Translations under genes and position numbers: made by a program | The notes under the pieces: generated by a model | The model's database searches: none | Told to the model about the DNA's origin: nothing | Seen by the model: the letters and a program-made list of their open reading frames with translations, nothing else | Shown here: positions 152 through 3,582 of the stretch, one piece after another | How the letters are laid out: every line of letters begins with the position of its first letter | Position numbering within the stretch: position 1 is the stretch's first letter | Origin: a virus | Taxonomy: Duplodnaviria; Heunggongvirae; Uroviricota; Caudoviricetes | Virus record (IMG/VR): IMGVR_UViG_2734482004_000012 | Reading direction: 5' to 3' (one strand) | DNA length: 4,122 bases

Positions 152-175
152 AAAAAAGCCTTCACTGCGGAAGGC
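152..175 (-). terminator. Putative rho-independent terminator after the 65-aa ORF
   Basis: Plus-strand gccttc (158-163) and gaaggc (170-175) form a 6-bp stem with loop actgcg. On the minus strand the hairpin is followed by UUUUUU (plus A-run 152-157). It overlaps the stop codon of ORF 162-359. Short stem, so moderate confidence. Confidence 0.4.
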
Positions 176-359
176 GTCTGTAACAACCGAACTGATAGTC
201 TGCCAGACCCGCCATAACCAGCTGAGTCAGTATTAACTGGCAGCGTTCGCGTGAAAGGTAAGTATTCTGCGCTATCTCCCCGACTGTCGCCGGGTCGGTA
301 ACGCTTAATTCATTAAACACCACTCTGGCGGTTTCTGTCATATCCTGCTGTTTTAGCAT
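162..359 (-). CDS. Hypothetical small protein (65 aa), possible winged-helix/HTH DNA-binding protein
   Basis: ATG at 357-359 preceded by AAGGA about 6 nt upstream on the minus strand. The segment TVGEIAQNTYLSRERCQLILTQLVMAGL resembles an HTH recognition unit. It lies between two terminator-like hairpins. No family recognised from memory. Confidence 0.45.
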   Translation of the reverse strand: MLKQQDMTETARVVFNELSVTDPATVGEIAQNTYLSRERCQLILTQLVMAGLADYQFGCYRRLPQ

Positions 360-480
360 GTCTTTTCCTTTTCCGGTTAACGTGACACACCAATAACTCT
401 TGTCGAAAAAGCCAGCAAGCTGAAAGACAGGTATTCACCGCCACCAGCGCGTTTACTGTACTGACGCGATTTCAGTCATA

Positions 481-501
481 AAAAACCCGCCAGGCGGCGG
501 G
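481..501 (-). terminator. tR'-like intrinsic terminator downstream of the late promoter
   Basis: Plus 486-491 cccgcc pairs with 496-501 ggcggg (loop aggc). On the minus strand this GC hairpin is followed by UUUUU (plus A-run 481-485). It sits about 60 nt downstream of the predicted PR' start, where a Q-dependent terminator is expected. Confidence 0.5.
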
Positions 502-538: not shown

Positions 539-578
539 ATCGTTAGAGCAAATTTACCACAGATTCGGGAAAAATCAA
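539..578 (-). promoter_or_regulatory. Late promoter PR'-like with sigma-dependent pause element (probable Q engagement site)
   Basis: Minus strand reads TTGATT (plus 573-578), 16-nt spacer, TAAATT (plus 551-556), TGCTCT, then AACGATGGG (plus 536-544). From memory this matches lambda PR' (GGGTAAATTTGACTCAACGATGGG) in the -10 hexamer, the spacing and the AACGAT pause-inducing element. Predicted +1 near plus 544. Starts about 40 nt after the Q stop codon (TAG at 584-586). Confidence 0.5.
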
Positions 579-583
579 CAACA

Positions 584-1403
584 CTATCGCGTTACCCTCT
601 TTAACTGCCGCTCCGCCCATGCCTCTTCAATGTCAAACCGAACCACCAACGTATCGTAAAAGCGTTTCACTGATTTTTTCCACGTATCAAGCGTGATAGC
701 ACTCGTCACTTTGCATATGGCATTAAATGCCTCCGTTGATGGCAGCCTTTCACAGCCACGACCACCACAACGCTGGCAATCTCTGATAACAGGCATACCA
801 CGTTTTACCGACTCTTCACGATGAATGGCGACACCACGCCCACGGCAATCCTTACAGGCGGTGGAAACCTCACCCTTTCCGCCACACTCCGGACAGGCAA
901 CTTTTACCACCTCCCTGACTTTTTTCCATTCTTCCCAGTAAGACGGATACACGCCTTTTGTGCACTTTGCCCACACTGGTGGCTTACCATCCGGATACTG
1001 GATCTTGTTTGTAAAAACCTCGCTTTCAATAAATTTTTTTCCGTGACAGCAAGGGCACTGTTTTTTGCTCGCCGCGCTACGGGCATAATCTTCAAACGCA
1101 TACGAAGCCAATGCGCATCACTACCGGTTTTATTTCTGCCGGAAGTTTTCTCAACGCCGCCACACGATCGCACCGACTGAGTGCATAATCTGCCAGTAAT
1201 TCTGTTGCCCGCGCCCTGTCATTCATACTGATGCCCATTTTCCCCAGGAACGCAGAAAACCCCATCTCAGCCCGATTCTGTGTCATGCCCTGCGCGGCCA
1301 TCACATCAGTGATACTCAGCGCATCTTTTGACGTTGAGGCCGATGCATCGGTCAGGCCAGGGGATTTTGGGGAGTAGTATTTCGGTAAATCTTCCAGTTT
1401 CAT
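584..1403 (-). pseudogene. Q: Antitermination protein Q (lambda Q family), interrupted by an apparent frameshift near 1095-1111
   Basis: ORF 1092-1403 (MKLEDLPKYYSPKSPGLTD...DVMAAQGM...) matches the lambda Q N-terminus as I recall it (MRLESVAKFHSPKSP...DVMAAMGM...). ORF 584-1111 (LASYAFEDYARSAA...CxxC motifs...LDTWKKSVKRFYDTLVV...RVTR) matches the lambda Q C-terminus (LATFAYADYCRSAA...LTQPTWSRTVKPLYDALVV...AVTR). The two parts are in frames offset by one nucleotide and overlap by about 20 nt. The apparent start codon of the C-part is TTG and is really an internal Leu. The ATG at 1401-1403 overlaps the rusA stop (ATGA). Confidence 0.8.
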
Positions 1404-1786: not shown

Positions 1787-2807
1787 TTACCCAAGCACGC
1801 CAGTTGCAAAGGCGTGATCAAGAAAACGAAAAATTAAATCAACCTGAGAACCATGCTTTTCTTCGAACGCCAGAGGATCCGCATGAAGCTCGTTGTGATG
1901 CTCCCGACACAGCGGTAGCGTGAAAATATCGTGAGATTTTGTCCCCATTCCGCCCTGACCATGACCAATCAGGTGATGGGGATCGTCGGCTGGCTTACCA
2001 CAACACGCACACGGCTGTGTCTTCACCCAGCGTGTGTATTTCTCGTTAACCCNNNNNNNNNNGAGACTCAGGATCAACGGCAATGCTGACCACCGTCTCT
2101 TCCTGTGGCGGGTTTTGCTGGTGGGCGTGAGGCAGCGGCGCAAGATTTTTTGTGCGCTGCTTCAGTATGCTGGTGGCGGTCTGCTCTCCCGGTACGATGT
2201 CGCTTTCACGGTACATTGAGCGGATTTTTTCCGCACGCAACCCCAGCGAACGACGTAATACCGCTTCCGGTAGCGCGTCCGCCACCTGATTGCGGACCGC
2301 ACACCAGGATAATTCAGCCAGCGATAATTCCCGTTCCTGCGAGCCATTCATTGCATGGAGTATGACGTCAATCATCCATGCTGACAGGTTTTGATGAGCA
2401 AGTTGCTCGAGTGATTCGGATGTCTGGTCACGCAGCTGGTTGTCGCAGTGCCAGCACAACACCATTGCGCCGGTACCATAACGGTGAATGACGGTTTCGC
2501 TGTGATGATAATCGCCGTGTGGCCACTGGCAGGATTTAATATGGCGCAACAGCCAGTCAGACAATGCACCAGCACCACCAGCAGCACGAATCACCCGTGC
2601 GTTACTGAAAAACGGCAGCAATGTTTTGTCTTCCACTAGCGGCTGGCGAACGGCAGGAACAACCCCGGACGGCAGATTACGCATGCTTTTCGGTTCCGGC
2701 TCCACCAGTACCCGGGTATTGTGGAATACCGGCATGGATTCACGGCCCGGCTTAACGATCACCAGCCCGAGTTCCGGTACCAGAACAGGTCGAAGTAATA
2801 CTCGCAC
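1787..2807 (-). CDS. DUF968-family phage protein with C-terminal HNH-like Cys/His motif (YdfU-like), interrupted by a 10-N gap
   Basis: ORF 2046-2807 (N-terminal about 250 aa) and ORF 1787-2143 (C-terminal, ...NEKYTRWVKTQPCACCGKPADDPHHLIGHGQGGMGTKSHDIFTLPLCREHHNELH...) are separated only by the N-run at 2053-2062 and are most simply one gene of about 340 codons. GTG start at 2805-2807 preceded by GGAGG (plus 2812-2816). The frame offset across the gap is uninformative because gap length is arbitrary. Family assignment is from memory of Qin-type prophage proteins. Confidence 0.65.
2053..2062. other. Assembly gap (run of 10 N)
   Basis: Ten consecutive n characters in the sequence. Confidence 1.
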
Positions 2808-3254: not shown

Positions 3255-3410
3255 TTACTCCTCAGGTTCGTAAACTGTGAAGACAGCGACCTCCGTCTGG
3301 CCGGTTCGGATTCGTACCTCGCAGAGGTCTTTCCTCGTTACCAGTGCCGTCACTATGACGGTTAAACAGATGACGATCAGGGCGATTAACATCGCCTTTT
3401 GCTGCTTCAT
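3255..3410 (-). CDS. hokD: Hok/Gef family type I toxin (51 aa), HokD/RelF-like
   Basis: Product MKQQKAMLIALIVICLTVIVTALVTRKDLCEVRIRTGQTEVAVFTVYEPEE has the single transmembrane helix and the conserved RKDLCEV...TGQTEVAVF core of the Hok/Gef family. It is near-identical to HokD/RelF as I remember it. SD AAGGAG 9 nt upstream of the ATG at 3408-3410. Confidence 0.85.
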   Translation of the reverse strand: MKQQKAMLIALIVICLTVIVTALVTRKDLCEVRIRTGQTEVAVFTVYEPEE

Positions 3411-3467
3411 AGCCTGCTTCTCCTTGCCTTTCGGCACGTAAGAGGCTAACCTAGATTTGCCGTTCAT
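3255..3467 (-). CDS. Mok-like in-frame leader ORF (70 aa) overlapping hok
   Basis: ATG at 3465-3467 with GAGG 8 nt upstream. The N-terminal extension MNGKSRLASYVPKGKEKQA is in frame with Hok. It resembles the MokC extension (...KVKEKRAMKQHKAM...) as I recall it. In hok-family loci, Mok translation is what allows Hok translation. Confidence 0.5.
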   Translation of the reverse strand: MNGKSRLASYVPKGKEKQAMKQQKAMLIALIVICLTVIVTALVTRKDLCEVRIRTGQTEVAVFTVYEPEE

Positions 3468-3567
3468 AGATTGAGCCTCAGATTAATGTTAAGCGTCTTG
3501 CAGGACGCGTAATATTAACTGGGGCTTTTCTCTATCTGCCTTTGGTGTTCATGCCTGAGGCAGATAG

Positions 3568-3582
3568 CCTCAAGCACCCGCA
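3568..3582 (-). promoter_or_regulatory. 5' leader (tac-like) element of the hok mRNA, complementary to 3190-3205
   Basis: See the paired element at 3190-3205. It is followed in the transcript by a 9-bp hairpin (plus 3532-3540 ctatctgcc / 3559-3567 ggcagatag). Confidence 0.45.

Follow-up and report, generated by a model that had tools for sequence, protein, structure and literature searches.

Does a phage antiterminator with four DnaJ-like cysteine motifs, twice the number in lambda Q, represent a distinctive variant, and how would such motifs bind zinc? These questions are raised by a gene of the Qλ family on the minus strand of a 4,122-nucleotide stretch of viral DNA, IMG/VR virus record IMGVR_UViG_2734482004_000012 (the whole of which is referred to here as the window). 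The Q gene (584-1403, minus strand) is disrupted in the window; its intact allele, of the long QuuQ-type form, encodes the 273-residue protein WP_000762880.1, and residue numbers below are those of the protein with its reading frame repaired. Our analyses indicate that this is very probably a long-form (QuuQ-type) late-gene antiterminator of the lambda Q family, and that its four motifs are a trait of the whole subfamily rather than of this locus. It is also probable, from models and sequence comparisons, that the motifs build two zinc ribbons in tandem, one from motifs 1 and 2 and the other from motifs 3 and 4.

Motifs of the Long-Form Q Protein and Their Distribution

The four motifs had been listed in a preliminary description of the window, and each was found at the coordinates given there, all four in a single frame of the minus strand, that of a 175-residue open reading frame (ORF). 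Motif 1 (CPCCHGKK, 1034-1057) supplies C117 and C120 and motif 2 (CPECGGKG, 872-895) supplies C171 and C174, the proposed first and second knuckles, respectively, of an extra zinc ribbon; motif 3 (CKDCRGRG, 833-856), with C184 and C187, is the equivalent of lambda Q C118/C121, and motif 4 (CQRCGGRG, 755-778), with C210 and C213, that of C144/C147. The spacings in the repaired protein are 54, 13 and 26 (motifs 1-2, 2-3 and 3-4, respectively). A chance origin of the four motifs is excluded; when the repaired 273-residue protein was shuffled 200,000 times, CxxCxG never occurred more than twice, against the four matches observed, and shuffling of the 175-residue ORF produced three in 2 of 200,000 cases and four in none.

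In a profile search the repaired protein scored 166.1 bits against Pfam family PF03589 (cut-off 26.7), and the two Q fragments encoded by the window both match this family, at 81 and 99 bits. Homology to lambda Q was found in sequence and in fold over the N-terminal segment, the helix-turn-helix (HTH) body and the arm, and the Q proteins of phages 21 and 82 belong to families unrelated to the window Q.

The PF03589 model (87 positions) matches both halves of the repaired protein strongly (residues 24-111 and 178-265), as it does in lambda Q. A reading of these two "Antiterm" stretches as a duplicated zinc module was rejected, since one stretch is the N-terminal half of Q and the other its C-terminal half, both occur also in lambda Q, and BLASTP found no similarity between the two. 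The double match seems to reflect a quirk in the construction of the Pfam model and not a real repeat.

The preliminary description had presented the four motifs as a distinctive variant. This did not survive alignment, which shows the region to be common to QuuQ-type proteins, the very observation that the description itself had named as telling against it. All eight motif cysteines are invariant in 107 full-length relatives of 55-95% identity from many enterobacterial genera, and motif 1, which in the window protein is CxxCxGxx with the final glycine absent, is mostly CxCCxGxG in the relatives. When 1.84 billion representatives clustered at 50% identity were searched exhaustively, only 226 clusters emerged. 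Counting a CxC form of motif 3, 28 of 45 near-full-length representatives have four motifs; in several others the first motif departs from the usual pattern (CKNCSSMG and C-PDPD-C are among such variants in the family), and only about four are of the two-motif, lambda-like kind. A large "three-motif" class suggested by a first regular-expression count was discarded when alignment showed CxC in place of CxxC at motif 3 and the recount gave four motifs. Across the family, the spacing between motifs 2 and 3 is always 13 and that between motifs 3 and 4 is 25-26 (23 and 27 in one representative each), whereas that between motifs 1 and 2 varies from 14 to 63, and in the alignment the short forms have neither motif 1 nor motif 2. 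In a phage collection, the long form matched in one piece in 131 of 249 matching records, including mEp237, mEp460, ST104, Fels-1, mEp021 and Shiga toxin 2c (Stx2c)-converting, Klebsiella, Erwinia and Yersinia phages; proteins of the lambda/P22/HK022 type match in two pieces. Lambda Q is itself shortened and in the minority in its family, most of whose diversity is made up by the long form.

In most of the more distant long-form Q proteins (P0123, P0128, P0129 and others), motif 3 is CxCxGxG and the spacing from motif 3 to motif 4 is 25, not 26; judging from the alignment, this is an unusual knuckle variant at the site homologous to the zinc ligands of lambda Q. A 337-residue relative from a 1.8-kb contig (P0001) has a duplicated motif 1/motif 2 piece fused before its N-terminal Q part, which is probably an assembly artefact or a rearrangement.

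The gene itself is ordinary, very common and annotated before, and its four-motif pattern is already flagged in databases. By megablast, the region 560-1420 is present in 2,495 of 5,426 complete Escherichia coli genomes; 275 records with at least 99% identity to it are labelled "antitermination protein", with a RusA gene adjoining, and the copy in strain UTI89 gives the 273-residue WP_000762880.1 under the same label.

The Additional Block and the Zinc Site of Lambda Q

Lambda Q has exactly two motifs of this type, as stated in the preliminary description (CRDCHGTG at 118 and CGRCKGVG at 144), and the two form one zinc ribbon (PMC9388147). The same description had placed the middle two of the four window motifs in an insertion of about 60 residues relative to lambda Q. 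An insertion, of 68 residues, is indeed present, but by HMMER, MAFFT and BLOSUM62 scoring it contains the first two motifs and not the middle two. In phmmer, residues 1-113 align with lambda Q 1-113 and residues 182-273 with lambda Q 116-207, and phmmer and MAFFT leave residues 114-181 (863-1066, minus strand) as a block absent from lambda Q, situated at the junction of body and arm. The lambda motifs align with motifs 3 and 4 in HMMER, MAFFT and gapless scoring, and their spacing is 26 in both proteins. In the gapless BLOSUM62 comparison, the first lambda motif with its next 18 residues scored 39 against motif 3, compared with 5, 15 and -3 against motifs 1, 2 and 4; after masking of the motif positions, motif 3 scored 9 and the other three -17, -15 and -33, respectively. 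On sequence the placement of the indel is nevertheless formally ambiguous, since the motif is repeated and motif 1, too, follows a conserved RSAA(S/T).

Residues 182-218 (752-862, minus strand), which run knuckle, strand, helix, strand, knuckle, are the equivalent of the lambda Q "arm" according to the alignment, AlphaFold2 (AF2) and the lambda structure (PMC9388147). AF2 predicts strands at 192-195 and 206-209 of the arm with a helix at 196-202 between them. The arm ligands C184, C187, C210 and C213 align with lambda C118, C121, C144 and C147, and are invariant in the 107 relatives. In lambda Q, the arm (residues 114-152) is a zinc ribbon that touches positions 11-13 of the Q-binding element, its tip (133-137) contacts σ region 4, and residues 110-112, 117 and 122-126 contact the β' zinc-binding domain of RNA polymerase (PMC9388147). 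The insertion point of the extra block falls among these β' contact residues.

Probable Zinc Pairing in the Additional Block

Tandem ribbons are favored because motifs 3 and 4 are homologous to the solved zinc site of lambda Q, and because of the strands predicted by AF2, the motif spacings, the joint absence of motifs 1 and 2 from the short forms, and the register of the match to the DnaJ profile. The AF2 models of the full-length protein and of the isolated module (the product of window positions 725-1087; predicted local distance difference test score 76.6) both have 12-residue strands, 125-136 and 159-170, between motifs 1 and 2. In addition, AF2 places short strands beside the knuckles (114-116, 179-181, 183, 192-195, 206-209 and 218), and knuckles that are each flanked by short strands form the pattern of two successive zinc ribbons. 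Between motifs 1 and 2 the models predict a long β-hairpin (residues 125-170; 896-1033, minus strand), whose tip carries two short helices and whose length varies in the family. That the spacing of motifs 1 and 2 is free and the others are fixed fits a loop with both ends held together. Most likely, a second zinc is bound by motifs 1 and 2, which would anchor the base of this long, variable hairpin. As for an internal duplication of the ribbon, we found a weak match of 29 residues (E 0.001 for a single comparison).

It is unlikely that Q instead contains a true DnaJ-type cysteine-rich domain, in which the zinc centres would be interleaved (motif 1 with 4 and motif 2 with 3) and the middle two motifs would form a nested insertion. 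The DnaJ likeness noted in the preliminary description holds for the motif itself. The four repeats of the DnaJ family PF00684 (DnaJ_CXXCXGXG) are present as four CxxCxG, the first without its last glycine; this family is listed on nearly all long-form relatives in precomputed annotation, and one source labels a long-form relative "chaperone protein DnaJ". Beyond the motif the likeness ends. Against a PF00684 gathering score of 32.7, the window protein scores 28.0 bits (below), K-12 YdfT 35.4 (above) and lambda Q 23.1; no J domain, G/F region, C-terminal substrate-binding domain or other DnaJ part was found among Pfam and NCBIfam domains outside the motif region, and TIGR02349 scored 21.9 bits versus a cut-off of 377. 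By these scores the resemblance to the DnaJ profile is generic to the knuckle type, because the single ribbon of lambda Q already gives 23 bits to PF00684. One zinc in DnaJ is bound jointly by motifs 2 and 3, whereas the neighboring motifs 1 and 2 have no zinc in common. The PF00684 profile pairs Q motifs 2, 3 and 4 with DnaJ motifs 1, 2 and 3, and the two motifs of lambda Q with DnaJ motifs 2 and 3, a register that favors tandem ribbons.

Far less likely again is that the extra cysteine pairs bind no second zinc and are disulfides or a structural relic, the protein having one zinc as in lambda Q. Motif 1 (CPCCHGKK) is without the final glycine, and the first motif is a variant in some members (CKNCSSMG, C-PDPD-C), both of which would suit such a reading. 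Against it, C117, C120, C171 and C174 do not vary among the 107 relatives while the hairpin between motifs 1 and 2 varies freely, structural disulfides are in general improbable in the reducing cytoplasm, and CxxC knuckles that come in pairs with strands beside them are the classical signature of a zinc ribbon.

Late Promoter and Proposed Mechanism

A Q gene is expected to follow the nin/rusA region and to stand immediately ahead of a late promoter with a σ-dependent pause element and a terminator, and this one does, with a DUF968 gene and rusA lying 5' of it. The PR'-like late promoter (539-578, minus strand) has a -35-like TTGATT at 578-573, a TGg-TAAATT -10 element at 556-551 and a σ-dependent-pause-type AACGAT at 544-539; on the minus strand 3' of the Q stop, the order is TTGATT, 16 nucleotides, TGgTAAATT, 6 nucleotides and AACGATGGG (544-536). 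Lambda PR' and its σ-dependent pause element contain exactly GGTAAATTTG and AACGATGGG, separated by the same distance. A consensus promoter scan called no σ70 site here, the PR'-like element being recognized only by direct comparison with lambda. A strong intrinsic-terminator-like hairpin, a candidate for tR', on which Q would act, lies at 480-501 (minus strand), where CCCGCC-GCCT-GGCGGG (501-486) provides 6 G-C pairs and is followed by T6 to 480. The hairpin is ~45-65 nucleotides past the predicted start, and its position is the same in UTI89. The predicted leader is ~65 nucleotides, versus 194 nucleotides for the lambda 6S RNA.

By analogy with lambda Q, and from the sequence comparisons, the intact protein is expected to act in antitermination. 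It would consist of the N-terminal segment of lambda Q (which in lambda forms a nozzle at the RNA exit channel), a helical HTH body, a lambda-type arm (motifs 3 and 4) and the 68-residue addition. It would bind near the PR'-like promoter just downstream of its gene, presumably in a region between and around the promoter hexamers, engage polymerase paused at the σ-dependent-pause-type element, and take RNA polymerase through the terminator at 501-480. We suggest, tentatively, that the zinc-pinned hairpin of long-form Q might serve as a second functional "arm" that makes an extra contact with upstream DNA, σ or RNA polymerase. Such a contact is possible because the point at which the hairpin leaves the protein falls exactly among the residues with which lambda Q contacts the β' zinc-binding domain. 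If there is a second arm, then the layout of the Q-binding element or the loading pathway would be unlike the one solved for lambda. Because certain Stx2c-converting phages have a Q gene of the long form, the loading mechanism could, speculatively, bear on toxin expression.

Literature searches on quuQ, on Q together with zinc and DnaJ, and on the Q types of Stx phages returned no description of the extra module, and no structural or functional study of long-form Q was found in them. The wider interest of our analyses is that the common long form of the family has a second probable zinc ribbon at the RNA polymerase interface, which apparently is unstudied structurally. The significance for the window locus itself, a standard annotated prophage Q gene, is small. 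What has been gained there is a set of corrections, namely that four motifs are the norm of the subfamily, that the lambda zinc site corresponds to the last two of them, and that the gene is frameshifted in the window.

Disruption of the Gene in the Window

The window as it stands encodes no intact Q. Alignment with UTI89 showed that a 2-bp (TA) deletion at 1110/1111 (minus strand), which shifts the frame, is the sole difference from the UTI89 gene for WP_000762880.1. Two overlapping minus-strand ORFs result: that at 1092-1403 (103 residues) stops six codons after the deletion, and that at 584-1111 (175 residues) is the downstream frame. The window copy thus does not have an intact reading frame, which leaves its assignment to the Qλ family unaffected. 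The deletion was found in 0 of 5,426 complete E. coli genomes (best match 80/82), and a scan of representative-genome contigs gave no match to the deletion allele. The frameshift is either private to the strain, making the gene a pseudogene, or a sequencing or assembly error, because the deletion occurs in none of these genomes and the window has a run of N. That the split gene works as it is, with cooperating fragments or a programmed frameshift that restores full-length Q, is scarcely credible even with both fragments (103 and 175 residues) still open, as the deletion is missing from every complete E. coli genome, the best copies of the gene there being otherwise identical, the break runs through a body helix, the N run makes a sequencing or assembly error at least as likely, and evidence of a slippery site was neither seen nor sought.

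The run, 10 N at 2053-2062, breaks up the DUF968 (ydfU-like) gene (1787-2807, minus strand), which is listed as two ORFs in consequence, and shows the window to be draft or scaffolded sequence.

Genomic Context

The host element is a lambdoid (Qin-like) prophage of E. coli. On the coding strand 5' of Q are hokD/sok, a small ORF, the DUF968 gene and rusA, in the order found in UTI89. The Hok ORF of the hokD/mokD type I toxin locus (3255-3579, minus strand) starts MKQQKAMLIAL and ends at 3255, and the Rfam sok family (RF01794) matches 3405-3579 with 113 bits. The first gene past the candidate tR' is a 65-residue ORF (162-359, minus strand), a hypothetical protein in UTI89, after which there is a second terminator-like hairpin (175-158).

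Comparison with Known Systems

Two other zinc proteins resemble the window protein in their motifs. Anti-TRAP (RtpA; PDB 2BX9) has two neighboring CxxCxGxG motifs 13-14 residues apart, a distance like that between window motifs 2 and 3 or, in the smallest members of the Q family, between motifs 1 and 2; it is a protein of 53 residues with one zinc and an unrelated function, and the matches to it are weak and far below curated cut-offs. The cysteine-rich domain of DnaJ (Hsp40) has four CxxCxGxG-type repeats with two zincs possible, as in the window protein, and there is a weak fold match to DnaJA2. However, the spacings of the window protein (54/13/26) are unlike those of PF00684 (~17/26/14), and zinc pairing is probably sequential in the window protein, whereas in DnaJ it is interleaved, within a V-shaped hairpin fold.

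Lambda Q (207 residues; PDB 4MO1 and 7UBJ-7UBN) shares with the window protein the nozzle-forming N-terminal segment, the HTH body and the zinc-ribbon arm. It is without residues 114-181 of the window protein and has neither motifs 1 and 2 nor the long hairpin. The arm-tip residues are TELWG in lambda Q, where they contact σ region 4, and SVKRG in the window protein. The DNA upstream of the -10 element, which is the location of the Q-binding element, also differs between lambda and the window, and the combination of differing DNA 5' of the -10 element and a differing arm tip is consistent with a different DNA specificity.

The long-form protein of K-12, YdfT/QuuQ (Qin prophage, b1559, 250 residues), has its four motifs, CEHCSGTG, CQHCHGKG, CRGCKGKG and CGRCNGNR, in the same order as the window protein, and its spacings of 13 (motifs 2-3) and 26 (motifs 3-4) are equal to those of the window protein. 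Its hairpin between motifs 1 and 2 is shorter, its fourth motif ends in NR, and its gene is unbroken, only the window copy being frameshifted. The neighborhood of the Qin gene is much like that in the window, with hokD and DUF968/ydfU upstream but without rusA between ydfU and ydfT, and K-12 Qin has a similar PR'-like element with AACGATGGG, in the same layout and with an analogous hairpin.
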